NCBI GenBank assembly: GCA_021513695.1
Contig: CP084166.1
Location: 576,001-640,000, forward strand
Length of the DNA stretch: 64,000 nt
Source: Candidatus Heimdallarchaeum aukensis
GTDB lineage: Archaea; Asgardarchaeota; Heimdallarchaeia; Heimdallarchaeales; Heimdallarchaeaceae
Direction: 5' to 3'
Shown: in pieces, positions 1 to 18,151 of the stretch
Position numbering within the stretch: the stretch's first letter is position 1
Layout of the letters: every line of letters starts with the position of its first letter
Translations under genes and position numbers: made by a program
Notes under the pieces: generated by a model
Told to the model about the DNA's origin: nothing
Databases searched by the model: none
The model's input: only the letters and a program-made list of their open reading frames with translations

Positions 1-41
1 CTAAGTATGGAATCTCACCACCATAAGGAGAGAAAAAAAGT

Positions 42-1466
42 ATGAAACTAAATAAAAAAGTGTTGACTATAATATTGTGCACAATCATCTTACTGTTAGT
101 AGGTACTTCAAATACAACTAGAGCAGTTCATCAAGAAAAGAACAGATTCGCACATACATTACACACCAATATTAGTTTAATCACTCCAATTAATATCACC
201 TCTGATGAAGATTTCTCTAAGTATGCATATGATGGTTCAGGAAGAGAAGAGGATCCATATATAATTGAGGGATATGAAATAACAGGGCAGGATGTTACAG
301 GGATATACATAGCGAATACTACGAAATATTTCATCATACGTGACTGTGTTATTGAAGGTACTAGTCAAGGAATTCATATTGTAAATGTGTCGGATGGGAC
401 AGCATTAATCACAAATAATATTTGTAAAAATATAGTAAACCAAGGTATAATCGTTGAAAACACTAATTATGCGATATTACATAACAATACTTGTAGTGAA
501 TCTAATATGTATGGCATCCATAGCCGATTCTCAGATTACCTTATATTGGAACAGAATACTTGTAATAAAAACGGAATGTGTGGAATTTTTGTAGATTACT
601 CAACTTCGACTGTGATTAGGAAGAATATTGTTATTGATAATGTGCTCTCAGGTATTATTGTACAAGATACAGTAAAAACTCTCATCTCCCAGAATTATTG
701 TTTTGATAATGATGGCATGGGTGGAATAGTGCTCTCAAGATCTCTAAATGCGACAATTATAAACAATATTTGTGTTGATGACTTTCAAGTTCAAGATGGT
801 ATTAATCTTTACAATTCAGATGGTTTTATTATAAAAAATAATACCATTTCCTATGGCAGGTATGGAATATTTGTATCTGAATCTTCACACGGGGTATATA
901 CTAATAATACTTGTATAGAAAATAGCAAATATGCTGTTTATATAAAATATGGATACAACATTTCTATCAATGAAAACAACTGCAGCGCTAATGAGCAAGG
1001 AATAAATCTTTACAACTCTTCAACAATTTATATCCACAATAATAGTATAAGTAAAAACACTATTGGACTGACTTTTGATCTCACGAATCATTCAATCATC
1101 ACTTTTAATTCATTTGAGGAGAATGAACAATATGCAATAATTATAGATTCTTCATCTTCTTCTAATCTCATCCACCATAATACGTTTGTTGACAACAACT
1201 TGCAAGGAACATCTCAAGCTTGTGACAATGGCAATAATAATACCTGGTATGACCAATCGACAAAAACTGGTAATTATTGGTCTGATAAAAAAGGAGGAAA
1301 ATATTACATAGATGGTAGTAGTAAATCGTATGATAAATATCCCCTAAAAAATCCCCCTCAACAATTTGCTGAAAAAACTTCTATTGATTTTTTCATCATT
1401 CTTATATCTTTTCTCTCTTCTACAGTTATTATGTCTTATGTCAAAAGAAACAAGTATGCTTTATGA
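42..1466 (+). CDS. secreted/membrane-anchored right-handed parallel beta-helix repeat protein (NosD/PbH1-like)
   Basis: N-terminal hydrophobic signal/anchor. Many ~22-aa repeats of the form N-N-(T/I)-(C/I)-x-x-N-x-x-G-I (parallel beta-helix). GNYWSD motif near the C-terminus, then a C-terminal TM helix plus basic tail. Paralogous to 54577..56934. Confidence 0.6.
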   Translation: MKLNKKVLTIILCTIILLLVGTSNTTRAVHQEKNRFAHTLHTNISLITPINITSDEDFSKYAYDGSGREEDPYIIEGYEITGQDVTGIYIANTTKYFIIRDCVIEGTSQGIHIVNVSDGTALITNNICKNIVNQGIIVENTNYAILHNNTCSESNMYGIHSRFSDYLILEQNTCNKNGMCGIFVDYSTSTVIRKNIVIDNVLSGIIVQDTVKTLISQNYCFDNDGMGGIVLSRSLNATIINNICVDDFQVQDGINLYNSDGFIIKNNTISYGRYGIFVSESSHGVYTNNTCIENSKYAVYIKYGYNISINENNCSANEQGINLYNSSTIYIHNNSISKNTIGLTFDLTNHSIITFNSFEENEQYAIIIDSSSSSNLIHHNTFVDNNLQGTSQACDNGNNNTWYDQSTKTGNYWSDKKGGKYYIDGSSKSYDKYPLKNPPQQFAEKTSIDFFIILISFLSSTVIMSYVKRNKYAL

Positions 1467-1727
1467 CAATTATGAGTGATTCGAATGTTAAGGTTATTAC
1501 CCAGATGTTAAATTCTAGTTAAGCTAGTTATTCAGCTAGTGCAGCTGCTTTAGGAAGCATTAAATCTTTGTTTATTGTTCTTCTTTTAGTTTTCTACTTT
1601 GGCTTAAAGTTTAAATATTCTATATGAATGAAAAAAATCAATTTTACTCTTGTAGGACTTGCAATCATTTTATCTGGATGCGATTAAGAATTTTTTAATA
1701 ATACATATGAATGTATATGTGATTAAG

Positions 1728-1937
1728 ATGGCTAAGAATATAGCAATCTCTGATGAACTCTACAAATTGCTGAAACGTTTAAAACGCCCTGGTGAAAGTT
1801 TTACTGATGTGATTTTAAGATCAATAAAACATTCTACCTCTATAATGGATATTACAGGTAAAAAAACAATACCCCTAGAAGAATGGGAAAAACTCAAGAA
1901 ATTATTTGAAATGAAAGAAATAGAGTTACAAGCGTAA
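1728..1937 (+). CDS. small RHH/CopG-type antitoxin-like protein (VapB-like, COG1753-like); no toxin partner seen
   Basis: Start taken at the internal Met (MAKNIAISDELYKLLKRLKRPGESFTDVILR), a typical N-terminus of archaeal ribbon-helix-helix antitoxins. The upstream in-frame extension looks spurious. Confidence 0.45.
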   Translation: MAKNIAISDELYKLLKRLKRPGESFTDVILRSIKHSTSIMDITGKKTIPLEEWEKLKKLFEMKEIELQA

Positions 1938-2166
1938 AAGAGATTTGCTTGAGCAGACGATAAAAGATTTCAATTGGTTTATTATTAGCAATAATAACAA
2001 ATCCAATCGGAAATGAATCTGAAATTCCATTGGGAAAAAATTTTTCTTTAATAGAGACACCTATTTTTATTTTTGTTTTTGGACTTTTTTCAATTCTAAT
2101 TTATTTTCAGTAAAACAAAAATTATGTGGAACTGTTGCAAAATTAACATTGACATCAAAAGAATTA

Positions 2167-3501
2167 TTATTTTAGTAATAACTGTAAAGCTGAAATTTGT
2201 TTCTGTTTAGGGTCTATAGTCTTATTTTTAAAGAAAATCCCACTATTTAACATCTCTTCATAGATAATTACTCCCAATATGTGTTTATTTATTGTTTCTG
2301 TTTTTTCGAAACATTTGTCTACTATTGGTTTAATCTCTTTGTAAAGTTCATACTTTCTAATTTCATCAGAACTATAATTGTGAAAATAGTAATCAATAAA
2401 TTGTATTATAATTACTGCATTTTTTTGGTTTAACATTTGATTCTTTTCTAATTTTTCCATTAATCTTCGTTTCAATTGACCTAATTTTGCCTTTATTCGT
2501 TTAGTCTCAACAGTTGATGGAAATTTTATTTGATTTGAAATTTGAATACATTTCTTACTTTTAATTTCGAAGACAAAACAAGATTTAATTGGAGATTCAA
2601 GAAGTTTTGTAACAGAAATTTCTTTTAAGAATTTTTTACCTTTTTCTGATTTTTTTAGTTTATATAATGTGTTTAATAAACTCACTTTATCTGACGAAAA
2701 GTAATTTTCGCCAAAGATTCTTTCCATACTATTTAGATATTGATATAAGGATAAATTTTTAGAACCCATAAAATCTTCTTCAAATAATTCCCAAGAATTT
2801 TCCAAAATTAATAGAAGAAGTTTGTCTATTTCTTCTAATACTAGCTTAGTTATGTACTCTTTATCAAACTTATTTTTATAAATTATTTTTTCTAAATCAA
2901 CTTCTAAGCTGACAGAATAATTGAGAGGGATTTTTTGAATGGCTTTTCTACATATTTCATCAAAACTCTCTTCTAATATTTTATCAACCTTATTCTCATA
3001 AAGTGAAGTGACTTCTAAATTAAATTCAATATTTTGAATGAAAATTCGAAAATCATGATTGAAATCTGAAATATCTCCATAAATAATCTTTGATACATGT
3101 TTATTTTTTAATAATTGGATATAAAGTTGGAACTCAATATATTTACTAAAGTTATTATTTCTAGTAAAACTCCTCATTTTTGATATTATTTTCTTCTGAA
3201 TTCTGCTACTTCTTTCAAACAGATTTATTTCTTTTGTAAGAAGATTTTCTATTTCGTCTAGAATATATTTATACTTTGAAGAATTACGAGTATTTTTATT
3301 TGATAAGGTCTTATTTTCAGTATAAGCTAAATTAGCTATGTTAAAAAAAATATTATGATTATAATGTTTTATAGGTACATCAACATCAGAAAAAACTCTA
3401 TCCAAACTTGGATATTTTATTATCACATCTTTTGCCTTTGTAATAAATTCATTTCGATATAACTTATCATTTTTTTTACCGCAATATGAAGAAACAACCA
3501 T
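2167..3501 (-). CDS. hypothetical protein (444 aa, Lys/Asn-rich, no recognisable motif)
   Basis: Long uninterrupted ORF in very AT-rich DNA between the antitoxin and hsdR; no Walker, nuclease or HTH motif recognised. Confidence 0.5.
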   Translation of the reverse strand: MVVSSYCGKKNDKLYRNEFITKAKDVIIKYPSLDRVFSDVDVPIKHYNHNIFFNIANLAYTENKTLSNKNTRNSSKYKYILDEIENLLTKEINLFERSSRIQKKIISKMRSFTRNNNFSKYIEFQLYIQLLKNKHVSKIIYGDISDFNHDFRIFIQNIEFNLEVTSLYENKVDKILEESFDEICRKAIQKIPLNYSVSLEVDLEKIIYKNKFDKEYITKLVLEEIDKLLLLILENSWELFEEDFMGSKNLSLYQYLNSMERIFGENYFSSDKVSLLNTLYKLKKSEKGKKFLKEISVTKLLESPIKSCFVFEIKSKKCIQISNQIKFPSTVETKRIKAKLGQLKRRLMEKLEKNQMLNQKNAVIIIQFIDYYFHNYSSDEIRKYELYKEIKPIVDKCFEKTETINKHILGVIIYEEMLNSGIFFKNKTIDPKQKQISALQLLLK

Positions 3502-3645
3502 ATAACCACTTTATACATCTATTTTCTTGATAACTACTGTTTAAAACTTTACTAAAAATGTTTCAAAAGTTTCATGTAGTTATTAAATACTGAAATTTTA
3601 TTTTTTTGAATTTATTAGAAAAAATGAATATGTAAGAGAAATTAT

Positions 3646-4056
3646 TTATTTTCTATTGTATTTTTCTGTTAGCATTCTTTTTAACCACAAATTTAGGAAT
3701 GAATTTAGTGAATCTCTACTTTCAGTATCTACCATGCTTTTTGATGGATAAACAACACTAAACAAATACTGATCTTTATAAGATAAAACTTCTGCAATTT
3801 TTTTTAATGAATCTATACGAATTACTACCTCTGGGTCAGGAACCAAATCATCATTTTGTAAAAAATAGTGACCCATTGATAGTATCATCTCGCTTTCATC
3901 ACGAGATAAAATACTAATATGTAACTCCATCAAATTTCCAGAATACAAAATTAGTTTTTCTTCAATTTCTTCAACATTTGGAATTAATTTCATCAAGAGG
4001 TCATAGTTTTTATGAAAGATAGTTTCAATTGTTGTAATTATCTGTTTATCTGACAC
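3646..4056 (-). CDS. hypothetical protein (136 aa)
   Basis: ORF directly upstream (same strand) of the 444-aa unknown and downstream of hsdR; no motif recognised. Confidence 0.4.
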   Translation of the reverse strand: MSDKQIITTIETIFHKNYDLLMKLIPNVEEIEEKLILYSGNLMELHISILSRDESEMILSMGHYFLQNDDLVPDPEVVIRIDSLKKIAEVLSYKDQYLFSVVYPSKSMVDTESRDSLNSFLNLWLKRMLTEKYNRK

Positions 4057-4116
4057 AATAATAATAATTAAGATTAGTTTAAAAATACCAAAAATAAATT
4101 ATGAACGCATGAGATA

Positions 4117-7100
4117 TTACACCGCTGTTGCCCACTCTTCACCAAACAACTGTGCTTGCTCCATTATTAATTTAATCGCATTAGGAGTTTGATCTGGTGG
4201 ATATTTATACTTTCGCAATAGTTTACGAATCTCAATACGCATGCGAGCTTGAACACTTTTTCTTACTGTGAAATCAATTGTAGCAGAATTTCGAACCTTA
4301 GCAACTAACTCTTTTGCTATTTTCTTTAATGTTTCATCACCCATTTCTCTTACAGCACTTTCATTTGTAGCTAAAGCATCATAAAAAGCAACTTCATCAT
4401 CATTTAATCCAAGTTCTTCTCCCTTTTTGAAAGCTTTTTGCATATCTTTCGCTAATTGAATCAATTCCTCTAAAATTGCAGCAGAAGCTATTGTACGATT
4501 GATATATTTGTTAATAGATTTCTGAAGTAATTCCTCAAAAGAACGAGATTGAACTAAATTCTTTTTAGCTCTAGAACGAATTTGATCCTTCAACAATTTA
4601 TTTAAAACCTCAACAGCTAAATTCTTTTGTTTTAATCCTCTAACTTCTTCAAGAAATTTATCAGAAAGAATAGAAATTTCTGGTTTATCCAATCCTGCTG
4701 CAGAAAAAATGTCTATAACATCTTCTGAAATAACAGCTCTAGAGATTAATTGTCTAATTGCATAATCAACTCTTTCTTTACGTTCTTTGGAAGGAGTAGT
4801 AGCTTTTACAAAACCAGCACGTACAGCTTGGAAAAAAGCTAAATCATCTCGAATAGCTAAAGCTTCTTCATGAGGAATAGCAAGAGAAAAGGCTTTATTT
4901 AGTGCTGAAAGGTTATCTAAAAACCTTTTTTTAGCACTTTCTGGAGTTTCATTAGGTAAATTAAGAATATGTTCCATAGCAGCAGGAAGTAATTGTAATC
5001 TTTGTAAAGCACTTCCTGTTTTAAACAAAGAATAATCAAAATTGTAAAACATATCTGAAACAATTTCATAATATGTTTTCATTAATTCTACAGCTTTTTC
5101 TTGAGGAATAGCTGTTTGTTCTCTTGACTCTACATTAGAATACCTAGATAATGCTTGCTTAAGAAAATAACCTATACCAATATAATCGACAATAAGACCT
5201 CCAGGTTTATCTTTATATACTCTATTTACTCTAGCTATCGCTTGCATTAAATTGTGTCCTTGCATTGGCTTATCTACATACATTGTATGCATACTAGGCA
5301 CATTAAAACCTGTTAACCACATATCTCTTACAATAACAAGTTTAAGTTCGTCCTCAGGATCTTTCATTCGATTTTCAATAATTTTTCTTTTTCTTTTAGG
5401 CCTAATGTGTGAACGCAATAATTGATCATCAGCAGCAGAACCGCTAATTACAACTTTAATGAAACCTTTTTGATCATCATTAGAATGCCACTCAGGCCTT
5501 AGTTTTATTATTTCATTATACAATAAAGCACAAATCCTGCGAGACATACAAACAATCATACCCTTTCCATCTATAATCTCAAGTCTTTTTTCAAAATGAT
5601 TTACAATATCCTCAGCTACTTCACGTAACCTATCGGGATCAGAAACAAGCCTTTCGACTCTTGACCACTTAGATTTCAATTTTTCTCGAGCATATTCTTC
5701 TTCATCTTCTGTGATTTCATCAAATTCTTCATCGATTTGACCCTTCAATTCTTCATTAAACTTAATTTTAACTAACCTTGATTCATAATAAATAGGAACA
5801 GTAGTTTTATCTCTTATTGCTTGTGAAATATCATAAATGCTAATATAATTACCAAAAACATGAATCGTATTTCTGTCGACAAGTTCTACAGGAGTAGCAG
5901 TAAAAGCAATAAAAGAAGCATTAGGCAGAGCTTGACGAATATAAGCAGCAAAACCTTCTTTTAATGAACCTTTTTCAGAAAGTTTTTTTCCAAAAGAATA
6001 ATGACTTCTATGAGCCTCATCAGCAATAACAATGATATTCCTCCTCTCAGATAAAAGAGGATATTGTGCATTCTCTTCAGGAAGAAATTTTTGTATTGTA
6101 GTGAAAATTACACCACCACCGGTTGTTTTAAGCAAATCCTCAATATTATCTTTTGTCGCTTCATGATTTTTTGGATTGTACCTCCTTGCTGTGGCTTGAA
6201 TAGAAGTTTGACGAAGAAGATCCCTTGATAAAGTAAAAGTTGTAAAAAGTTGGTCATCTAAATCGTTTCTATCAGTAATAACAACGACAGTAGGATTGTT
6301 AAGTAGCTGGATTAACTTTGCGGTATAAAATAACATTGTAAGACTCTTACCAGAACCTTGAGTATGCCAAACAACACCAATCTTTTGATCACCATCACTT
6401 CCAGTAGCTCGTAAAGTTTCCTTAATAGCACGATTAACAGCATGATATTGATGATAAGCAGCAGATTTCTTGACTATTGTTCTACCATCGTCTTCAAAAG
6501 TAATAAAAAATCTGATGTAATCTAAAAAACGAGAAGGTTCTAAAATACCACGAAATAAAACTTCAAGAGATAAGATTGATTGGTCAGCTAATATCTCTCC
6601 CTCAATAGTGCGCCAGGGAGTAAAACGCTCCCAATTAGCAGATAAACTGCCAGCTTTAGATTCATAACCATCACTAATAACAATTAACTCATTAGTCCTA
6701 AATAAAGAAGGAATTTCTTTTTTATAAGTCTGAATTTGATTATAAGCATCTCTTGTAGTCGTTTCTTCTTTAGATGGGTTCTTAAGCTCAATAACTACTA
6801 AAGGAATACCATTAACAAAGAGAACAATATCAGGTCGGTGATTGTGTTTGTCAGAACCAACACCTTCTATAACAGTAAATTGATTTACAGCTAAAAAATC
6901 ATTATTCTCAGGATTCTCAAAATCAATAACTCGTACTATATCTCCCTTTACACGACCATCATGGTAATAAGAGACTTCTACACCATCAACTAACATTCTA
7001 TGAAAAGAACGATTGTTTGTTAATAAATCAGGAGAATCAATACGGTTGAGTTTCTGCAAAACATCTTCAAGCACTTCTTTAGGTTTATCAGGATTAAGTT

Positions 7101-7272
7101 TATGTAAAGCTGATTTTAGTCTATCTTTAAGAATAATCTCACTATATGATAACCTTTCAGGATTATTTCCTGTTGGTGCAATATCTGGACCAAACTTGGT
7201 ATCATAACCTAATTCTCTTAAAATTTCCATAGATGCTTCTTCTAACTCTTTTTCAGTTATTTTCATAATCAA
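4117..7272 (-). CDS. hsdR: type I restriction enzyme R subunit (SF2 helicase/endonuclease)
   Basis: Helicase motif I WHTQGSGKSLTM, motif II IADEAHRSHY (DEAH), motif III FTATP, motif VI QAIARVNRV; 1051 aa. Overlaps hsdS by 20 bp. Confidence 0.9.
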   Translation of the reverse strand: MIMKITEKELEEASMEILRELGYDTKFGPDIAPTGNNPERLSYSEIILKDRLKSALHKLNPDKPKEVLEDVLQKLNRIDSPDLLTNNRSFHRMLVDGVEVSYYHDGRVKGDIVRVIDFENPENNDFLAVNQFTVIEGVGSDKHNHRPDIVLFVNGIPLVVIELKNPSKEETTTRDAYNQIQTYKKEIPSLFRTNELIVISDGYESKAGSLSANWERFTPWRTIEGEILADQSILSLEVLFRGILEPSRFLDYIRFFITFEDDGRTIVKKSAAYHQYHAVNRAIKETLRATGSDGDQKIGVVWHTQGSGKSLTMLFYTAKLIQLLNNPTVVVITDRNDLDDQLFTTFTLSRDLLRQTSIQATARRYNPKNHEATKDNIEDLLKTTGGGVIFTTIQKFLPEENAQYPLLSERRNIIVIADEAHRSHYSFGKKLSEKGSLKEGFAAYIRQALPNASFIAFTATPVELVDRNTIHVFGNYISIYDISQAIRDKTTVPIYYESRLVKIKFNEELKGQIDEEFDEITEDEEEYAREKLKSKWSRVERLVSDPDRLREVAEDIVNHFEKRLEIIDGKGMIVCMSRRICALLYNEIIKLRPEWHSNDDQKGFIKVVISGSAADDQLLRSHIRPKRKRKIIENRMKDPEDELKLVIVRDMWLTGFNVPSMHTMYVDKPMQGHNLMQAIARVNRVYKDKPGGLIVDYIGIGYFLKQALSRYSNVESREQTAIPQEKAVELMKTYYEIVSDMFYNFDYSLFKTGSALQRLQLLPAAMEHILNLPNETPESAKKRFLDNLSALNKAFSLAIPHEEALAIRDDLAFFQAVRAGFVKATTPSKERKERVDYAIRQLISRAVISEDVIDIFSAAGLDKPEISILSDKFLEEVRGLKQKNLAVEVLNKLLKDQIRSRAKKNLVQSRSFEELLQKSINKYINRTIASAAILEELIQLAKDMQKAFKKGEELGLNDDEVAFYDALATNESAVREMGDETLKKIAKELVAKVRNSATIDFTVRKSVQARMRIEIRKLLRKYKYPPDQTPNAIKLIMEQAQLFGEEWATAV

Positions 7273-7960
7273 TTTCCGCCAAAAATTTTTCTATATTAGT
7301 AATTCGAAGCCTACCTGAGATAAGTTGAGGAAGTAGAATATCTCTTAATTTAATTAAAATATTAATTTCATCCTTATTTTTTCTAATTTTTTCAAAGATT
7401 GGGTCAATTATTTCTCTAAACTTTAGTAAAGTAGTCTTATCAGGTTTTATAATCGGAATCCTAAAAAGGTTACTTTGATTAATTTTTAATTGTACTGCAC
7501 CAGTTATATAAGGTCTAATGTTTATATTCATGAGATGTAACATAACAAATTCTGTACAAAATTCATTTTTTCCTTGTATTACATGAACATGATTATTCGC
7601 CCAAAATTTTCCATGTACATATTGTAAGATGGGTTTTTCATTGTTATCAATAACTGAACCATCTTCTGCCATTAAGAGAAAAATGCCATCAAAAATGTAA
7701 TCATCAATATAGTCTAAAATACTAGCTGCCCCATAATATGGATAAATACCTTTTCTTACCTTTCTTTCTATTTTTGATAAAGGAATTCTTTTTGAATCAT
7801 ATATACTTATGACTTCTTTGAGCGTCCCAACTTCCCATCCTTTTGGTATTTCTTTATCTACTTCCTCATTATATTCAAATTCGCCATCTTTGAAAGGTTC
7901 AAAATCAATAAACCAAGATCTGAAGATAGTTTGGGCTATCTCTTCTAAAACTTTGTTCAT
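7253..7960 (-). CDS. hsdS: type I RM specificity subunit, half-size (central conserved motif + one TRD + C-terminal conserved helix); probably 5'-truncated
   Basis: Begins with the HsdS central conserved block IFRSWFIDFEPF and ends with the C-terminal conserved LRDILLPQLISGRLRI. Only 235 aa versus about 400-450 for two-TRD HsdS. No hsdM upstream; an IS lies 130 bp away. Confidence 0.7.
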   Translation of the reverse strand: MNKVLEEIAQTIFRSWFIDFEPFKDGEFEYNEEVDKEIPKGWEVGTLKEVISIYDSKRIPLSKIERKVRKGIYPYYGAASILDYIDDYIFDGIFLLMAEDGSVIDNNEKPILQYVHGKFWANNHVHVIQGKNEFCTEFVMLHLMNINIRPYITGAVQLKINQSNLFRIPIIKPDKTTLLKFREIIDPIFEKIRKNKDEINILIKLRDILLPQLISGRLRITNIEKFLAEIDYENN

Positions 7961-8092
7961 CTTCTGATTGAGTTCAATTTTTTGATCTATAGAGCTTAAT
8001 AATTTACTAATAAATTTTTGTATTCTTAAATTAGGTATAGGAAGTGGGATATTTTCAATAATTGAGGTATTTAAGGAAGGTCTAGTAGTACC

Positions 8093-8855
8093 GGTAGTGT
8101 CTAGTTTTCTTCCGACAAAAATATTTGTGGGGACTCTAATAGTAAGATATGAACATTCAAAAACTATCTACTCTTTTTAAGAGATGCAGAGTCCCCAAAA
8201 AAATAATAATAAAAGCTATTTATGAATATATTGGTTCAAAGAATGGGTTGAGGACAGTAGCATGGAAGAATGGTTTAACGCATCAAACATTATGGTATTG
8301 GGTAAAGAAGTTCAGGCTCTTTAGGGAAAGTTTACATAGAGTTGTAGCAGAGAGAGGGGGAATACCAGAGATTATAGTAGTAGATGAAACAGAGATTAGG
8401 ACCTCTCAAGGCTCAATATATCTGTGGTTCGCGTTAGATCCTTACAACAAGACTTTACTGGGTTTTAGTATTACTAAAGGACGGAGTAATCTTGAATGTT
8501 TACTAACTTTCCGTTATTGGCTCAAATGTTGGGGTTTTAAGCCTCGTATTGTCGTTACAGATGCAGGAGTATGGTATCCTGTCTTACTTCGTCTAGGTAT
8601 CAAAATCTCCGTTATCAAAGGTGGTTTACGCTCCTATATTGAACGTTTTAATGCTACTCTTAAGAGTTATCGTTGGTTTCATTCTATTCTCCACTGCACT
8701 TGTCCTATCCGTGCCGTCTATGGCTCTACTCATCTTTCTGGTTTTCTTACTCTCTTTATGCTCTATTATAATTTCGTTCGTCCTCATCAGAGCTTAGGAC
8801 ATCCTCCCCTTAGTTCCTTTTTACCTAGGAGGTGGTATAAAAACTAGACACTACC
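8093..8855 (+). mobile_element. IS6-family-like insertion sequence (~763 bp) with 16-bp terminal inverted repeats
   Basis: Left IR ggtagtgtctagtttt (8093..8108) and its perfect reverse complement aaaactagacactacc (8840..8855), flanking a single transposase ORF. No clear target-site duplication. Confidence 0.7.
8149..8847 (+). CDS. DDE transposase, IS6-like
   Basis: 232 aa. VVDETEIR...VVTDAG...RPHQSL blocks resemble IS6/IS26 Tnp (DETY...D...E spacing). The N-terminal 64 aa are repeated at 43001..43195. Confidence 0.75.
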   Translation: MNIQKLSTLFKRCRVPKKIIIKAIYEYIGSKNGLRTVAWKNGLTHQTLWYWVKKFRLFRESLHRVVAERGGIPEIIVVDETEIRTSQGSIYLWFALDPYNKTLLGFSITKGRSNLECLLTFRYWLKCWGFKPRIVVTDAGVWYPVLLRLGIKISVIKGGLRSYIERFNATLKSYRWFHSILHCTCPIRAVYGSTHLSGFLTLFMLYYNFVRPHQSLGHPPLSSFLPRRWYKN

Positions 8856-9122
8856 AGTCAAAAATAGAAAAAAAATATAAAAGGCTTTTCTAAATAACAA
8901 CATTAGTTAAAGTATGTGGATTCTTACTAACAACCTTTGAATATAATTCATTTTTTATTTTTTGAATTATCTTCGCTCTATATTCCTCTTCTTTTTTGAA
9001 TCTAAATTAAACAATATAATTTTGTTCAACAGATAATTTTATATTGGGTTATAACCCATTACCGCCCAGAAGTCTAAAAAATAAAATAAGAGGCGATAAA
9101 AATAGGATATGGATCAGGAAGA

Positions 9123-9524
9123 ATGCGTGGTGGAGGAAGAGGAAGAGGAGGAGGATTTGGATTAGGAGCAGGAGGAGCATGTATTTGTCCAGTGTGTGGT
9201 ACAAAAGCTGCTCATGCAAGAGGGGTACCTTGTTTTCAATCTCGATGCCCACAATGTGGAGCACCAATGACTAGAGCAGAAGCTTATGCCGGCCCCCAAC
9301 CACAGAATAGTAAAAACGTACAAGAAGAGAAAGAATACAAATTTGATACAGCAGCAAAACCGCATATAGACCAATCTAGATGTAAGGGGTGTGCTTTATG
9401 CATTAATAGTTGTCCTTTTAATGTTATTAGAATGGAAAATGGTCATGCAATTATTGATTCTTCACGCTGCAGAAGTTGCGGAGTATGTATTTCTTCTTGT
9501 CCTGAAGGGGCGATAGTTTATTAG
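9123..9524 (+). CDS. Gly/Arg-rich (RGG-like) N-terminus + 4-Cys zinc ribbon + 2x[4Fe-4S] ferredoxin domain protein
   Basis: MRGGGRGRGGGFGLGAGG, then CICPVCG...CPQCG, then two CxxCxxCxxxCP motifs (CKGCALCINSCP, CRSCGVCISSCP). Confidence 0.6.
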   Translation: MRGGGRGRGGGFGLGAGGACICPVCGTKAAHARGVPCFQSRCPQCGAPMTRAEAYAGPQPQNSKNVQEEKEYKFDTAAKPHIDQSRCKGCALCINSCPFNVIRMENGHAIIDSSRCRSCGVCISSCPEGAIVY

Positions 9525-9556
9525 AAAATGTAAAAAAAAATTAAAAAATACTCTTT

Positions 9557-9934
9557 TTATATTTTTAGTGGATCAATAATTATACTTTCTTTATCAAAAG
9601 TTGCCAAGTAAAAGTCTTCTGTTAAAGTGAGACAACCAGTTGGACAAATATCTTGACATAGTGCACAGAAGCAACATTTTCCTAAATCTATTTGTGGATA
9701 AGTTTTTGGGTATTTCTCTTTATATTCTTCTTTTACTTCTACCATCTTTATCGCTTTATTTAAACAAATTTTGGCACAAGATCCACAAGAGATGCAGTTA
9801 TCGATGTCAAACTTATGTTTTGCTCTCTCTCTTTCTGATATCTCTACTTTCTCCATTGGAAAAAGAACAGTCATTGGTCTTTTGAACAAATTCTTGAATA
9901 TTTCTGAAATAATACTTAGTTTCATTGTTATCAC
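9557..9934 (-). CDS. NuoI/EchF-like 2x[4Fe-4S] ferredoxin subunit
   Basis: CISCGSCAKIC and CCFCALCQDICP motifs; 125 aa; last gene of a B-C-D-I operon. Confidence 0.8.
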   Translation of the reverse strand: MITMKLSIISEIFKNLFKRPMTVLFPMEKVEISERERAKHKFDIDNCISCGSCAKICLNKAIKMVEVKEEYKEKYPKTYPQIDLGKCCFCALCQDICPTGCLTLTEDFYLATFDKESIIIDPLKI

Positions 9935-9935
9935 C

Positions 9936-11048
9936 TCATCTATCTACATCAGCAGGACATTGGTTTAAACTCCAATAAATAGCAGGGACGTCAGCATAAT
10001 AAGAATCAGTAAGTAAATGCTTTAAAATAGGTATCATGTGAGTAAAAGAAGGTCCTCTGATCTTAACTCTATAAGGAGTCTTTTTTCCTGTAGCAATCAT
10101 ATAAATAGCTCCTTCTCCTCTTGATAGTTCATTACGTGTATAGGTTTCTCCTTTAGCTTTGCGGAAGTGAACAATAGGTTTCATATTAGACGTTTTTACT
10201 TCCCCTTTTGGCATTCTGTCAATTGCTTGCTTAACTATCTTCTTGCTTTCTTCTATTTCTTGCATAGCTATCAAATATCTTGAATAAGCATCTCCTTCAT
10301 CAAAAACTGGAATTTCAAACTCCAATTCATCATAAATTTCATAAGGATCATCTCTTCTAACATCTGAAGCAACCCCGCTAGCCCTTAAAATAGGTCCTGT
10401 TGCACCTAGTTTAATAGCTTCTTCTTTCGTTAACACTCCTACTTCTTTGAATCTTTCCAACCATACAGGATTTTCTTTTTTTGCGAATTTATGCATATAG
10501 TCAATCTTTTCAAATAAAGTAAGAATCTTTTTTTCTGCTTTCTCTGGTAAATCTTTTCTTACTCCTCCAGGGCAGATATATCCAGCTGGATAAAGTCTTC
10601 CTCCAGTAATATAATCGAACACATCTAGCATATAGTCTCTGTATCCCATTGCAACATTAAATCCAGTAGTAAATCCTGTTCCCATTGACATTACAGCGTA
10701 CCATATAAAGTGCGATTGTATTCTTGACAGTTCTGCAAGTATAACTCTGATGTATTTAGCTCTTTCTGGGATATCATAACCCATTAAAGTATCAACAGCT
10801 TCTGCATGGAGAAGATTCCACTGAAGAGGTTCTAAAACACATATTCTATCTGATAATACAGAGTTTTGCATTGGTTCTCTATATTCCATTAACTTCTCAA
10901 AACCCCTATGTAAATATCCTGGATCAACTACAGCTTTCATCACTCTTTCTCCACGAAGCTGAACTCTCACTGAAAAGTTTCCTGAACCAGGGTGAGCTGG
11001 TCCAAAGTACATTTCAAAATCTCCTTGTCTTTCTTCTATTTCAGTCAT
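9936..11048 (-). CDS. NuoD / [NiFe]-hydrogenase large-subunit-like protein with degenerate Ni-Fe ligand motifs
   Basis: 370 aa. N-terminal RICVLE...W where hydrogenases have RxCGxCxxxH; C-terminal NQCPADVDR where hydrogenases have DPCxxCxxH. Only the first Cys of each pair is retained. Confidence 0.8.
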   Translation of the reverse strand: MTEIEERQGDFEMYFGPAHPGSGNFSVRVQLRGERVMKAVVDPGYLHRGFEKLMEYREPMQNSVLSDRICVLEPLQWNLLHAEAVDTLMGYDIPERAKYIRVILAELSRIQSHFIWYAVMSMGTGFTTGFNVAMGYRDYMLDVFDYITGGRLYPAGYICPGGVRKDLPEKAEKKILTLFEKIDYMHKFAKKENPVWLERFKEVGVLTKEEAIKLGATGPILRASGVASDVRRDDPYEIYDELEFEIPVFDEGDAYSRYLIAMQEIEESKKIVKQAIDRMPKGEVKTSNMKPIVHFRKAKGETYTRNELSRGEGAIYMIATGKKTPYRVKIRGPSFTHMIPILKHLLTDSYYADVPAIYWSLNQCPADVDR

Positions 11049-11593
11049 TTTTTCACCTCAAAATAAATATCTTCTCGGGGATTACTTTCATCATAATATT
11101 CTTGTTGTACATATTTTCGCCAGTCGAAGTCCTTTCTAAACGGAGGAGGGCCAGTCCAGTCTTCCAACATTAGTGGAGTAAGATTAACGTTTCCTTCAAA
11201 AATCACGCCATAAAACTCATGGCATTCTCTTTCACATAATTCTGCATTTTTACTCCATAGAGAAGTAACAGAAGATATTGTAGGATTTTCTCTATTTATC
11301 CTTGTTTTTATCGTTAAAAGCATTTTTTCTTTATAGGACCATAAATGGTAAGCAATTTCAAAATTATTCTTTTCAATCCAATCTGTAACACTTATTGTAG
11401 AAAGATGTTCAAAACCCATATCATAAGCAATCGAACAAGCATCTACTATTTCTTTAGGTTCAATAGATACCCAAAGTCTTTTTTTTCTTTGGATATTAAC
11501 CTTCTTGTTTAATTTCTTACTTAAAGCCGTTACAATTTTTTCTTCTTTATCCAAATTATTCTTCTCTTTCTCTACTACACTCATTTTACTCAC
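11045..11593 (-). CDS. NuoC (30 kDa subunit)-like protein
   Basis: 182 aa with the ...ECHEFYGVIFEGNVNLTPLMLEDWTGPPPFRKDFDW block typical of NuoC; 4-bp start/stop overlaps with neighbours. Confidence 0.8.
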   Translation of the reverse strand: MSKMSVVEKEKNNLDKEEKIVTALSKKLNKKVNIQRKKRLWVSIEPKEIVDACSIAYDMGFEHLSTISVTDWIEKNNFEIAYHLWSYKEKMLLTIKTRINRENPTISSVTSLWSKNAELCERECHEFYGVIFEGNVNLTPLMLEDWTGPPPFRKDFDWRKYVQQEYYDESNPREDIYFEVKK

Positions 11594-12030
11594 TCATCCG
11601 GCATTCCATGAACATGTTGAACTATTTTGAAAACAGCATCAAAAACAGCTTCAGGTCTGGGAGGACAACCAGGAATATACATGGTTACAGGAAGATAATC
11701 TTCAAGCTTCTTAACAGTGTTATATGAATCCCAATACATCCCACCTGTTATTGGACATGAACCCAATGCTAAGACAAACTTTGGATCAGGCATTTGCTCA
11801 TAAATCTTTTGTGCTCTCTTCATTGATTTTGGTGTCTGAAAACCAGCAATAAACAACACATCAGCCTTTCTTGGTGAATTAACTGTTATCATTCCAAAAC
11901 GTTCCATATCCCATCTTGAACCTACAACTGGAACAAGTTCAGTAAATCCACAAGAGTTAAACCAATTAAAAACCCAAATAGCTTTTACAAAATATTTCAT
12001 CACAGTTTTCTTCTTAACCATCCTTTCCAC
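11590..12030 (-). CDS. NuoB / hydrogenase small-subunit-like [4Fe-4S] protein
   Basis: Motifs GSCPITGG and IPGCPPRP present. The usual tandem CC motif reads SCGFTE, so one of four canonical Cys is missing. Confidence 0.8.
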   Translation of the reverse strand: MERMVKKKTVMKYFVKAIWVFNWFNSCGFTELVPVVGSRWDMERFGMITVNSPRKADVLFIAGFQTPKSMKRAQKIYEQMPDPKFVLALGSCPITGGMYWDSYNTVKKLEDYLPVTMYIPGCPPRPEAVFDAVFKIVQHVHGMPDE

Positions 12031-12398
12031 TTTCTTCTCTTTTGTTTAGAAACACTATACACGAATTCTTGCTATAATTATTTAAAAAAAAATTTACTTA
12101 CATATATCTTTTAGGGTAAGAATTTAATCGTGTTGCTATACTTACAAGCCCAAAAATGATAAAATAGGTCAAGGACTTTTCGGATAACCGAACATTAATC
12201 AGTATAAATACTTGCCTAATCATGTGAATAATTATGCACATGGTCAAAATGGTGATAACTGCGAATTAATCAATGAAATAGGTGTTTAAGAAAAAGCACT
12301 TCTACTTTGAAAAAGAAAAATAAATGAAAATAGTAAATCCAAAAAGTTACAGTAAATAGATAAAAATATAATAAAAAAGAAAATAAAAGACATCTAAG

Positions 12399-14156
12399 TT
12401 ATGATTTATAACTCCCATATAGATAAAGAAATCGTTCTAAATAGTACAAGAAAACTTGATTGAAATAACCGGGAAAATAAATATCAGCTGCGTGACCTGC
12501 ATATGGAAAAGTTAGTAAAGCACAATCTGTTTTTCCAGTGCCTAAATAAGCATTTTTTATTATCTCTGACTCTTCAATCAATCTATCTTTTTCTCCTTGA
12601 AATATCAAACAAGGAGGAGAGCTCTCATTGATCAATATACTTGGATTGACCCATTCGTCCTTACTTTTTGTTGCAAACTCATATTTAACATTGTTTGCAG
12701 GATAATAAGGAATTATTCCTTTTATCCTTAATTTATTTGAAAAAATTTCAGTATAATTTCCAGAATCTATGCTTAGCGCAGTAGCTAAAGCGAGTTGCCC
12801 TCCTGCAGAACTTCCAGAAATAAATACTTTATCTAAATTTGCTCCGTATTCTTCCGCATGCTCTTCCAAGTAAAAAGTGAAATTACCTATTTGTCGAATC
12901 ATATCGTCAATAGTAAATTGTCCATAAACATTTTCTGGTCCGATTTTTAGCTTTCCAAAAACTGGTGTCTCATTATTTAGTCCGTATTGGATGTCAAAAA
13001 CACAGTATCCTTGTGCTGCAAGATATCTATTCATCATTTGTACATTAAGCTGTCCCTTATCTCCAAGAACCCACCCTCCTCCGTGAATTCTTATAATTGT
13101 TGAATTTTTTCCAGGTAAGGTTTCACTTGTTTGTTTCGGTAAGTAAGCATCAAAATAGAGTTTAATATCTTTATCAACTGAATAATTACTTTTGCTACCA
13201 TTAAAGTAAAGCACATCTGTTATAACTTGAACATCAAATTTTCCAATGCCAAAAAAGTATCCTGTTAGTTGAAAAGGATCATCGAGAAAATAATCTGTAA
13301 AACTAGAATTTTCTATAACTTTTTTCCAATCACCATCAAAATAAGGATTAAAAGCGTTTGAGAATTCTAATTCTGCTTGTTTTATTGTATAAGGAGTATA
13401 AGCTACTGGAACAAAAGAGAGAGAAGTAAAGGTTAACCCAAAAACTGCTATTAAGGCAATTTTTGCCTTAAAATATTTAGATCTCTTATTTGAAATGTTG
13501 ATGAGTGTAGATGAAGAGTTTAAAACTATTAAACCAATAAAAATCCCTGCAGGAGCAACAAAAACGCTTAACAAAAAGAAGAAAGTGTTTTGCATTCTTG
13601 GAGCAAAAAATATTATCGATGTAACTATCCCTAAACTCAACCCCAATAACGCCAAAATTAAAAGAATGACTTTAGCTATTTTACAAACTATTGTACCCTT
13701 TTCTTTTTCTTTTTCTTTTTCTTTTTCTGTGTTTTCTAGTTGATCTTTTATTCTTCTTTTTTTCACTAACCAGTAAAGACTTATAAAAGCAGGAAAAGAA
13801 AATAAAAACAATAAACTAAGAACAATCGCAACAGAAAAGATCACATTTATAGATTTGACAGGTGTGAAACCTGTAAAATTAACAAAAAATAGTACAATAA
13901 AGGAAAGAAAAGAGAAAACAAAGTAAAGGTATGATAGAATTCTAATATCACTTTTTTGTTTCGGCGATTCTAATTGTTTTGAGTTCAGGAAAGACAAAAA
14001 GAAGTAATTAAACATAATTGTAAATATAATGAATAATCCATTAATATTCCAAATTAAAGAATTTGAGGGATTTGCTAAATAAATTGAGCCTGTGATAATA
14101 TTTAGAACATTGATTATAATTGAAAATATGGTTATGTACAAAGGAAACTGTTTCAT
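12399..14156 (-). CDS. membrane-anchored alpha/beta-hydrolase (esterase/lipase, HSL/Aes-like)
   Basis: About 230-aa polytopic N-terminal domain, (KE)n linker, then HGGGW oxyanion motif (IIRIHGGGWVLGD) and GSSAGG nucleophile elbow. Confidence 0.7.
   Translation of the reverse strand: MKQFPLYITIFSIIINVLNIITGSIYLANPSNSLIWNINGLFIIFTIMFNYFFLSFLNSKQLESPKQKSDIRILSYLYFVFSFLSFIVLFFVNFTGFTPVKSINVIFSVAIVLSLLFLFSFPAFISLYWLVKKRRIKDQLENTEKEKEKEKEKGTIVCKIAKVILLILALLGLSLGIVTSIIFFAPRMQNTFFFLLSVFVAPAGIFIGLIVLNSSSTLINISNKRSKYFKAKIALIAVFGLTFTSLSFVPVAYTPYTIKQAELEFSNAFNPYFDGDWKKVIENSSFTDYFLDDPFQLTGYFFGIGKFDVQVITDVLYFNGSKSNYSVDKDIKLYFDAYLPKQTSETLPGKNSTIIRIHGGGWVLGDKGQLNVQMMNRYLAAQGYCVFDIQYGLNNETPVFGKLKIGPENVYGQFTIDDMIRQIGNFTFYLEEHAEEYGANLDKVFISGSSAGGQLALATALSIDSGNYTEIFSNKLRIKGIIPYYPANNVKYEFATKSKDEWVNPSILINESSPPCLIFQGEKDRLIEESEIIKNAYLGTGKTDCALLTFPYAGHAADIYFPGYFNQVFLYYLERFLYLYGSYKS
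13697..13728. repeat. (TTCTTT)n-like microsatellite inside the esterase gene, encoding a (KE)n linker
   Basis: ttctttttctttttctttttctttttct; translates on the minus strand to KEKEKEKEKEK. Confidence 0.6.
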
Positions 14157-17575: not shown

Positions 17576-18151
17576 TTAAGCTATGATAAGCTCGATAAAA
17601 TCGTTTGCAAATTTTTCTACTTTTTTCCAATCTCTGAAGTCAACAATATTGTTTTTCATATCTGGTTCATGTTCTTTGGCCACTACAGAAGCAATTTTCT
17701 TATCTAGCCAGCCCATTCTACTATTATCTGACAGATCAAGTTTTCCTCCAAATGCTTCAATTAGTTGAAATTCTAAACCTAGTTTTTCAATTCGTTCAAT
17801 TATGTATTGTTTTTTAATTTCATCATATCTTTCTTGCTGTGCAGCAAAAGCTGAACTAATGAAAAATGCCTTTTTTCCGCTATATTGTTTTAGTTTTTCT
17901 TTCTCCTTATTCAGATAATTTTTTACTTCTTTTACCCACATTGACATCTTAATTCCTGTACCTATAACAACACCATCGTAATTATTAATTTTAGGAAGAT
18001 TTTTGTTTTTGACTTTTTTTAAATCAAAAATGTCTGTTTTAATTTCTTTTTTCTCAAACATCTCCTTTAATTTCTCAGCTACTTCTTCTGTTGCTCCAAA
18101 TCTTGTTCCATATAGGATTAAAACTTTCTTATCAGTAATTTTATTCACCAA
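17576..18151 (-). CDS. flavodoxin-like fold protein
   Basis: KKVLILYGTRFGATEEVAEKL N-terminal flavodoxin signature. Confidence 0.5.
   Translation of the reverse strand: MVNKITDKKVLILYGTRFGATEEVAEKLKEMFEKKEIKTDIFDLKKVKNKNLPKINNYDGVVIGTGIKMSMWVKEVKNYLNKEKEKLKQYSGKKAFFISSAFAAQQERYDEIKKQYIIERIEKLGLEFQLIEAFGGKLDLSDNSRMGWLDKKIASVVAKEHEPDMKNNIVDFRDWKKVEKFANDFIELIIA

Follow-up and report, generated by a model that had tools for sequence, protein, structure and literature searches.

A dicluster ferredoxin with a Gly/Arg-rich leader and a Cys6His ribbon in Candidatus Heimdallarchaeum aukensis, and the unnamed prokaryotic module family to which its N-terminus belongs

Introduction

Ferredoxins of the clostridial type (Fer4, PF00037; Fer4_7, PF12838; structure 1fdn) carry two [4Fe-4S] clusters and, in their classical form, are acidic proteins. 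Zinc-ribbon and rubredoxin-knuckle micro-domains, namely RPB12/RpoP, rubredoxin and the C(P)XCG micro-proteins, e.g. HVO_2753, have two CPxCG knuckles borne on short beta hairpins. As for RGG/RG boxes, they are defined by at least two RGG, or three RG, 0-4 residues apart within a disordered region. Ferredoxin donors are also invoked for complex-I-like enzymes devoid of NuoEFG, i.e. photosynthetic NDH-1 and the NuoBCDI arm of Heimdallarchaeia, the latter being proposed to be fed by a ferredoxin docking on NuoI (bioRxiv 10.1101/2024.07.04.601786). Besides, a motif survey reported a putative G-quadruplex (G4)-binding motif in RG-rich DUF134 and DUF5320 proteins of Methanosarcina mazei (PMC7565180). 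A likeness to each of these systems is found in one 133-amino acid (aa) protein encoded at 9123..9524 on the + strand of a 64,000-nucleotide (nt) stretch of Candidatus Heimdallarchaeum aukensis (GCA_021513695.1, contig CP084166.1, positions 576,001 to 640,000 of the forward strand), hereafter the window, which is the subject of the present analysis.

With about even confidence, this protein is read here as a ferredoxin that a flexible linker tethers to a docking module binding metal. It would be a soluble low-potential electron carrier made of two units on a flexible linker, the electrons being carried by the C-terminal 2x[4Fe-4S] unit. The N-terminal unit consists of a cationic Gly/Arg leader, predicted to be disordered, and of the 26-residue Cys6His knuckle ribbon that directly follows it. 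In the ribbon, one Zn or Fe ion would be bound by the two CPxCG knuckles, and C20, H31 and C37 would make up a second, incompletely coordinated site; leader and ribbon together would dock or tether the fused domain onto a partner protein. The usual partner system would be the one encoded by a gene cluster for NifX-like proteins, MinD-type ATPases with ferredoxin, CDF transporters and DUF134 proteins. In the Heimdallarchaeum lineage, the fusion would have left this NifX-type neighbourhood and, under its own conserved promoter/operator and beside flavodoxin and NuoBCDI genes, would keep the ferredoxin close to a local redox partner. What is new here is a widespread prokaryotic module for which no Pfam or NCBIfam model attains its cut-off and on which no paper was found: searches of the literature on DUF5320, DUF134/UPF0251, the leader and ribbon motifs and the NifX, MinD and CDF cluster yielded the single motif survey already mentioned, with nothing on function.

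Protein anatomy and the ferredoxin domain

The open reading frame (ORF) at 9123..9524 starts with an ATG and its product has an N-terminus reading MRGGGRGRGGGFGLGAGGACICPVCG. Four segments follow one another, all on the + strand, namely a Gly/Arg-rich leader (aa 1-19, 9123..9179) of sequence MRGGGRGRGGGFGLGAGGA and net charge +3, a Cys6His knuckle ribbon (aa 20-52, 9180..9278) with two CPxCG knuckles of the rubredoxin/zinc-ribbon type and three extra invariant ligand-type residues, a flexible acidic linker (aa 53-78, 9279..9356) of net charge -2, and a clostridial-type 2x[4Fe-4S] ferredoxin domain with the stop codon (aa 79-133, 9357..9524), delineated by Pfam, AlphaFold and Foldseek. In the AlphaFold2 model of the whole protein, built from a 63-sequence alignment, aa 1-18 are predicted to be disordered, with a predicted local distance difference test (pLDDT) of about 50-65 in both AlphaFold models, aa 19-52 form a compact unit of two short hairpins (pLDDT 90-95, and 83-95 across both models), aa 53-78 are a floppy linker (pLDDT 50-70) and aa 79-133 adopt the ferredoxin fold (pLDDT 96-97). 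The linker differs in length and sequence among relatives, showing gaps and no conservation in the alignment of diverse relatives.

The ferredoxin domain contains the motifs C87/C90/C93/C97-P and C116/C119/C122/C126-P, about 29 residues apart, and the only above-cut-off Pfam placement on the protein is a dicluster Fer4 domain over aa 79-131 (cut-offs in brackets): Fer4 scores 46.6 bits (21.1), Fer4_10 38.1 (25.5), Fer4_9 36.3 (27) and Fer4_7 35.6 (27). NCBIfam returned generic ferredoxin-domain matches only, all sub-threshold. Foldseek aligns 54 columns of the modelled domain with the Clostridium acidurici ferredoxin 1fdn, giving an rmsd of 1.1 A and a TM of 0.89 on the target, and the other matches of the domain are HydB, HdrA and the oxalate oxidoreductase delta subunit. 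From the model and the scores, the C-terminal domain is an ordinary 2x[4Fe-4S] dicluster ferredoxin, with cluster binding and low potential as predicted properties. The likeness to clostridial-type ferredoxins thus covers aa 79-133, both motifs, the scores and the superposition; unlike them, the protein carries a 78-residue N-terminal extension (leader, ribbon and linker) and is basic, with an isoelectric point of 8.8 and a net charge of +7.

A sequence-only reading of the same DNA had described a Gly/Arg N-terminus followed by a ribbon and a dicluster ferredoxin, a layout borne out by the ORF sequence, Pfam and AlphaFold. The CxxC...CxxC pair that it listed is present (C22/C25 and C42/C45), as are its two CxxCxxCxxxCP clusters (C87-C97 and C116-C126), but it overlooked the invariant C20, H31 and C37. 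The N-terminal disorder and the Fer4 match that it had proposed to look for are found in the model and in the Pfam scores, respectively. Its remark on purine-rich codons in AT-rich surroundings also holds, as the leader DNA (9123-9179) is 81% purine with 54% G+C, for 30.7% G+C in the window overall. A stretch with 14 Gly or Arg out of 18 residues occurs nowhere else among the six-frame ORFs of at least 60 aa in the window.

The Cys6His ribbon

The ribbon follows the pattern C20-x-C22-P-x-C25-G-x4-H31-x2-G-x-P-C37-x4-C42-P-x-C45-G-x2-M-x-R and holds all seven residues of the family-wide pattern C-x-C-x2-C-x5-H-x5-C-x4-C-x2-C at its fixed spacing. In a set of 271 modules gathered by a looser regular expression, 269 keep this spacing, 265 of these 269 having C20 and 258 H31, and the seven ligand-type residues are invariant columns in the alignments of module relatives. 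Considering the strand register of the model, with strands at 19-21 and 28-30 and a turn at 37-39, we infer that C20, H31 and C37 could form a second, three-ligand site.

Regarding known domains, no Pfam or NCBIfam model attains its cut-off on the ribbon. The Pfam zinc-ribbon models on the N-terminus are all sub-threshold, DNA_ligase_ZBD scoring 21.5 (cut-off 25.8) and Zn_ribbon_NUD 20.6 (24.8), and a sequence search of the PDB with the N-terminal profile gave nothing under E=0.5. The zinc-ribbon/rubredoxin-knuckle micro-domains, which have in common with the ribbon the two CPxCG knuckles, placed on short hairpins in its predicted models, are its top fold and sequence matches, though non-significant ones; the top Foldseek matches of this kind include rubredoxin, desulforedoxin and rubrerythrin.

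Distribution and architectures of the module

Although a word-index homologue search with the N-terminal 59 aa gave no candidates, probably because of the low complexity of the N-terminus, a profile built from the N-terminal 66 aa and run exhaustively with HMMER against 1.84 billion representatives (clusters at 50% identity) retrieved 1,517 clusters at E<=1e-3, including 129 at E<=1e-10. This exposes a large family (over 1,500 clusters at 50% identity) in which small Cys6His proteins bear a conserved Gly/Arg leader, its named sources being Calditrichaeota, Deltaproteobacteria, Gaiellales, Micrarchaeota, Aenigmarchaeota and Heimdallarchaeaceae. Over the 25 residues before the motif, the mean composition of the family leaders is 35% Gly, 14% Arg/Lys and 5% Asp/Glu, and they typically end in GRGR(M/QP)GGFGLGPGG; the window protein carries the family motif GRGR-x-GGFGLG(P/A)GG, as GRGRGGGFGLGAGGAC, directly ahead of its first Cys, and this motif is also conserved in stand-alone members. 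Most members of the family are such stand-alone proteins, of about 70 aa. About half of the top 150 matches stand alone with at most 100 aa and have the consensus MPxGDGTGPxGxGPGTGRGxGRGGGRGRxGGFGLGPGGxCVCPxCGxKVPHQRGVPCYxxKCPxCGxxMTR; leader and ribbon of the window protein are 52-74% identical to the stand-alone proteins of about 70 aa.

Other members are fusions (homologous proteins being designated by P numbers and loci by L numbers). As in the window, the module stands N-terminal to Fer4 in P0022, P0032, P0057, P0081, P0121 and P0165-P0190, and it stands C-terminal to Fer4 or Fer4_13 in P0172, P0175, P0178, P0179 and P0028. It also comes after DUF134 (P0045, P0220), after a NifX-like Nitro_FeMo-Co domain (P0033, P0216, P0257), after a CDF transporter (P0108) and after a response-regulator receiver (P0130). 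Two to five copies occur in transmembrane (TM)-PDZ proteins with terminal Nitro_FeMo-Co (P0006, P0007, P0009), and two or three copies with little leader follow an apparent N-terminal signal sequence, as judged by eye (P0005, P0015). The fusion partners counted in favour of the docking module, i.e. Fer4, Fer4_13, Nitro_FeMo-Co, DUF134, the CDF C-terminus and the TM-PDZ-multi-module-Nitro_FeMo-Co arrangement, are all metal- or redox-related. From these sequences, the RGG-like addition to the ferredoxin is a recurrent architecture generated from an unnamed mobile module. The sequence-only reading, which had called it an unusual addition to a ferredoxin, was half right, but leader, ribbon and Fer4 recur together in many distant bacterial and archaeal proteins and in both domain orders.

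Two of the multi-copy groups deserve a description of their own. P0006, P0007, P0009 and P0016 are membrane-anchored proteins of 700-1,400 aa with PDZ, 2-5 Cys6His modules and 1-3 Nitro_FeMo-Co domains, an architecture for which no description was found in the literature. P0005, P0015, P0067 and P0087 have apparent signal peptides (by eye) and two or three ribbons, the Gly/Arg leader being nearly absent. These latter sequences suggest that the ribbon may work outside the cytoplasm too and that leader and ribbon are separable; such forms, with several ribbons and little leader, argue for a ribbon binding metal rather than nucleic acid.

Relation to DUF5320

The N-terminus had also been likened to the Gly/Arg-rich N-termini of archaeal DUF5320-type proteins, a comparison that turned out to be a good lead, but one that does not apply to the window protein itself: no match to DUF5320 (PF17253) was obtained with the N-terminal 80 aa at E<=10 or with the whole protein at E<=0.01, and the protein is devoid of the N-terminal MPxGDGTGPMGxGPMTGRG motif, beginning at the proximal GRGR-GGFGLG motif. 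Some stand-alone relatives do match DUF5320 with their leaders, over model positions 1-52 only, with 31.1 bits for P0207 and 27.8 for P0227 (cut-off 27), and hhalign aligns the family segment MPxGDGTGPxGxGPxTGR with a true DUF5320 protein (L009, 6076-6450, covering model positions 1-99) at a probability of 89% over 21 columns. On this sequence comparison, DUF5320 and the Cys6His module family appear to share a leader, MPxGDGTGPxGxGPxTGRG in DUF5320 and the stand-alone module relatives, and to differ downstream, DUF5320 continuing into model positions 33-99, the C-terminal part of which is presumably a coiled coil, and the module family into the ribbon. The window protein likewise has the Cys6His ribbon in place of the C-terminal region of the DUF5320 model. 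Besides, DUF5320 genes lie in the same NifX-like neighbourhoods, and fusions of Fer4 with DUF5320 (P0232, P0248) parallel those of Fer4 with the module.

Translation of the Gly/Arg leader and position of the start

By comparison of codons and proteins, the Gly/Arg leader is translated and conserved. Four close homologues, all of them Heimdallarchaeaceae proteins, retain it in their protein sequence; the codon changes include synonymous GGA>GGT/GGG/GGC and GCA>GCT, and L004 has an in-frame 3-nt deletion. In L001, whose protein P0004 is 54-58% identical to that of the window, the codon at the position of the window's ATG is AGA, so that the start there must lie upstream, otherwise the ribbon would be lost. 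Indeed, the in-frame codons for KIGYGSGR (9099..9122, + strand), just upstream of the ATG at 9123, show protein-level conservation in relatives: P0003 starts as MKIGYGSGRM, distant fusions start as MIGYGRG or MSYGRN, and P0004 reads ...AIKISYGSGRRQ. The ancestral ATG position, 9096, is ATG in L004 and ATA in the window, PR6 and L006, and an in-frame stop is found at 9087-9089, upstream of the window's leader. This suggests that the window start results from a recent shift to the ATG at 9123, or that initiation occurs upstream at a non-canonical codon. A purine-rich element, GAGGCGAT, is located at 9090-9097.

The opposite view, i.e. a Gly/Arg region outside the protein, the true start lying downstream and the purine-rich DNA being a 5' untranslated region, has a vanishingly small probability, and nothing was found in its favour. 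The only downstream in-frame start-type codons ahead of the ferredoxin domain are GTG (V24) and ATG (M49), where a start would delete the invariant C20/C22 or five of the seven ligand residues. This view is contradicted by the pattern of leader conservation, with its synonymous changes and in-frame deletion, to which hundreds of distant family members add. A conserved start downstream of the leader, which the sequence-only reading had named as what would take the Gly/Arg stretch out of the protein, was not found, the translation of relatives beginning 5' of the leader.

Two kinds of targeting peptide were also considered for the leader and rejected. Twin-arginine (Tat) signal peptides have the signature S/T-R-R-x-F-L-K followed by a hydrophobic core and a cleavage site; the leader has neither an RR pair nor a hydrophobic core and passes straight into the ribbon. 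As for an encapsulin-type targeting peptide, none of the ORFs and called genes that were examined was recognisable as a capsid gene.

Gene neighbourhoods outside Heimdallarchaeaceae

NifX-like genes adjoin all three stand-alone module genes and three of the four non-Heimdall fusion genes, and five of the six NifX-adjacent loci (all but L015) also hold CbiA/ParA+Fer4 ATPase, CDF, DUF134, DUF364 or DUF5320 genes. The genes of the stand-alone P0249, P0196 and P0209 belong to co-directional clusters with DUF134, NifX-like, CDF transporter, CbiA/ParA+Fer4 ATPase, Lactamase_B and DUF364 genes. The fusions P0166 (L008), P0176 (L009) and that of L015 (a deltaproteobacterium) lie directly beside NifX-like genes, in the company of CbiA+Fer4, DUF5320, a radical SAM gene, a CDF-NifX fusion, ArsP permeases and ArsR, and L009 additionally encodes a stand-alone module gene. 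The family is in this manner tied, by neighbourhood and by fusion, to NifX-like proteins, MinD-type ATPases with ferredoxin inserts, CDF transporters and DUF134 regulators. In anaerobes, this cluster, itself uncharacterised, is probably concerned with the handling of iron or of a metal cofactor.

Some of these loci (L013 9241-9552, L011 5818-7035 and L009 8425-9702) bring together CDF transporters, one of them fused to a NifX-like domain, a MamF_MmsF-family gene and a FeoB-like GTPase gene, L013 holding both the MamF_MmsF and the FeoB-like genes. By analogy, this gene mix resembles iron-handling systems.

The Heimdallarchaeum locus

In the window, the ferredoxin gene faces a nuoB-C-D-I block (9557..12030, - strand), recognised by Pfam and NCBIfam matches and made up of nuoI-like (9557-9934), nuoD-like (9936-11048), nuoC-like (11045-11593) and nuoB-like (11590-12030) genes. 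This is the peripheral arm alone, with no nuoA/H/J/K/L/M/N genes at the locus. The two sets of genes are convergent (tail to tail) and 32 bp apart (9525-9556), rather than divergent and 33 bp apart as the sequence-only reading had it.

Related loci were found with a close alignment, a relatives search with the diverse alignment having given no usable conserved stretch. Over 9017-12531, the window is about 95% identical at the nt level to Candidatus Heimdallarchaeum endolithica PR6 (CP084167.1; L014), and the same tail-to-tail block, the ferredoxin gene and then nuoI-D-C-B, occurs in the window, in PR6 and in L001-L003 (74.6% nt identity), with differing flanks on either side. Between the window and L001, identity amounts to 87.5% for NuoD, 89.7% for NuoB and 76.8% for NuoI, for 54-58% in the ferredoxin protein. 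In L006, the ferredoxin gene (82% nt identity) and the esterase gene (93%; window 12405-13227) are joined directly, a 2.9-kb nuoBCDI segment being missing (L006 1156-1280 vs. window 9516-12405); this mosaic identity suggests recombination or deletion at the site. All in all, the gene pair is kept in three Heimdall lineages and lost in one. Flavodoxin_5 paralogues of 39-56% mutual identity are found near the block in these three lineages at differing positions and sides (window 17576-18151, - strand; L001 2151-2714; L014 9500-10060, - strand).

The Nuo-like proteins have features of their own. The NuoB-like protein has three Cys only (27, 92 and 122), with S-C at the position where, presumably, the NuoB of complex I carries a tandem C-C. 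The NuoD-like protein also has three Cys (70, 159 and 364), so that no more than two of its positions (RIC-VLE, QCPADVDR) can correspond to the four ligand positions of [NiFe]-hydrogenases.

Functional interpretation

Metal binding by the ribbon, its docking role and the identity of its partner are what we infer from the invariant ligand-type residues, the fusion partners and the neighbourhoods, and several points weigh against this interpretation of the protein as a ferredoxin tethered to a metal-binding docking module. Metal binding by the ribbon and docking are, throughout the family, predictions made from sequence and models. Fold searches with the ribbon gave nothing significant, the best matches being RPB12 and rubredoxin at E about 0.8, and the basis for the second C20/H31/C37 site is conservation and secondary-structure register only. 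The cationic RG-rich leader could equally bind nucleic acid. One of the non-Heimdall fusions, P0057 (L007), is alone among them in having an uninformative gene context, and neither the window nor L014 nor L001 has an ORF matching a home-made NifX-like hidden Markov model; because no NifX-like gene lies near the Heimdall genes, the family-wide NifX-like context may not carry over to them.

Other readings of the N-terminus have been put in the balance. A rubredoxin-like Fe(Cys)4 centre in the ribbon, or a further Fe-S cluster on the seven ligand residues, would turn the protein into a three-centre electron wire instead of a ferredoxin with a structural zinc domain, a reading deemed unlikely. CPxCG knuckles are the signature of rubredoxin, in agreement with the non-significant Foldseek matches reported above, the seven invariant ligand-type residues exceed the needs of one zinc ion and the module is repeatedly fused to ferredoxin domains, but Zn and Fe are not distinguishable from sequence, the 26-residue disordered linker between ribbon and clusters would be poor for fixed-distance electron transfer, and the module also sits on non-redox domains (DUF134, CDF, PDZ) and in the apparent signal-sequence forms. 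Those same forms fit less well with a genuine RGG/RG box binding nucleic acid (RNA or G-quadruplex) and coupling redox to binding, perhaps an Asgard precursor of the RGG proteins of eukaryotes, a reading to which a very low probability is given. The leader is predicted to be disordered and is cationic, and the RGG-x3-RGG with three RG dipeptides (R2GG-GRG-R8GG) formally fits the di-RGG/tri-RG pattern of eukaryotic boxes, as the sequence-only reading had sensed; the module is moreover fused to a predicted DNA-binding DUF134 domain in many proteins, and RG-rich DUF134 and DUF5320 proteins were flagged in the M. mazei survey, which was motif matching only (PMC7565180). Within the leader, conservation is strongest over GGFGLGPGG rather than over the RG repeats, the gene contexts are those of metal and redox rather than RNA metabolism, and the family spans bacteria and archaea instead of being Asgard-specific. 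In contrast with eukaryotic boxes, the window leader is also short (three Arg) and joined directly to a putative metal-binding ribbon.

Regarding the partner, the ferredoxin could be the dedicated electron donor of NuoBCDI, docking on the NuoI-like subunit to feed an arm without NuoEFG, with the cationic N-terminal module as the docking device. This reading is considered rather unlikely, the donor role being a possible but weakly supported one that rests on adjacency within Heimdallarchaeaceae. It agrees with the preprint proposal of a ferredoxin docking on NuoI (bioRxiv 10.1101/2024.07.04.601786), and it draws on the preservation of the tail-to-tail block in the window, PR6 and L001-L003 despite differing flanks and on the Flavodoxin_5 paralogues near it in all three lineages. 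Against it, ferredoxin and nuo genes are not co-transcribed, because they converge and a putative promoter block of its own precedes the ferredoxin gene, L006 keeps the ferredoxin and esterase genes without nuoBCDI between them, and no nuo genes lie near any non-Heimdall homologue examined; synteny inside the genomes of one family is weak evidence and there is no obvious charge complementarity, NuoI being about neutral and the ferredoxin carrying its net +7. The likeness to the ferredoxin donors of other NuoEFG-less enzymes is that of a ferredoxin gene adjoining a NuoBCDI block without NuoEFG; unlike there, gene adjacency is all that links the two here, the genes converge and no membrane-subunit genes are found at the locus. 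A bolder extension, held to be decidedly unlikely, makes leader and ribbon an undescribed metal- or cluster-handling docking domain which would mark the NifX-like/MinD-Fer4/CDF cofactor system of anaerobes and would have been re-used in Heimdallarchaeum to tether a ferredoxin to the NuoBCDI arm. If true, the protein would be the physical electron-input device of an Asgard complex-I-like enzyme. More generally, the protein is a concrete and testable candidate for a question posed by Heimdallarchaeia, that is the electron source of a NuoBCDI arm without NuoEFG. Beyond this locus, RGG-like low-complexity leaders are conserved functional parts of prokaryotic redox and metal proteins, which bears on eukaryote-like readings of Asgard motifs.

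Upstream region and other features of the window

Upstream of the ferredoxin gene, a 37-bp block, TTGTTCAACAGATAATTTTATATTGGGTTATAACCCA (9022..9058, + strand), hardly varies among five related loci, in contrast to the diverging DNA that precedes it. The block contains a TATA-like TTTTATAT (9037-9044, + strand) and a perfect 14-bp palindrome, TGGGTTATAACCCA (9045-9058, + strand), which occurs once in the window, with no second good copy (0.11 matches expected at up to 2 mismatches). A search of 8800-9600 against Rfam gave a chance-level match only, the block corresponding to no known RNA family there. Judging from its sequence, it is probably an archaeal promoter together with an operator for a regulator.

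Beyond this block extends a variable island (1476-9016), in place of which another, shorter insert lies between these flanks in PR6, window positions 1-1475 matching L014 633-2106. In this island, the ORFs at 4117-7272 and 7253-7960 look HsdR- and HsdS-like (type I restriction-modification), by sequence inspection only, and that at 8149-8847 resembles an rve integrase/transposase through sub-threshold Pfam matches. On the other side of the nuo block, a second strongly strand-biased stretch (13872-13941, - strand) encodes an (EK)n repeat, TEKEKEKEKEKG, within the membrane-anchored esterase ORF 12399-14156.

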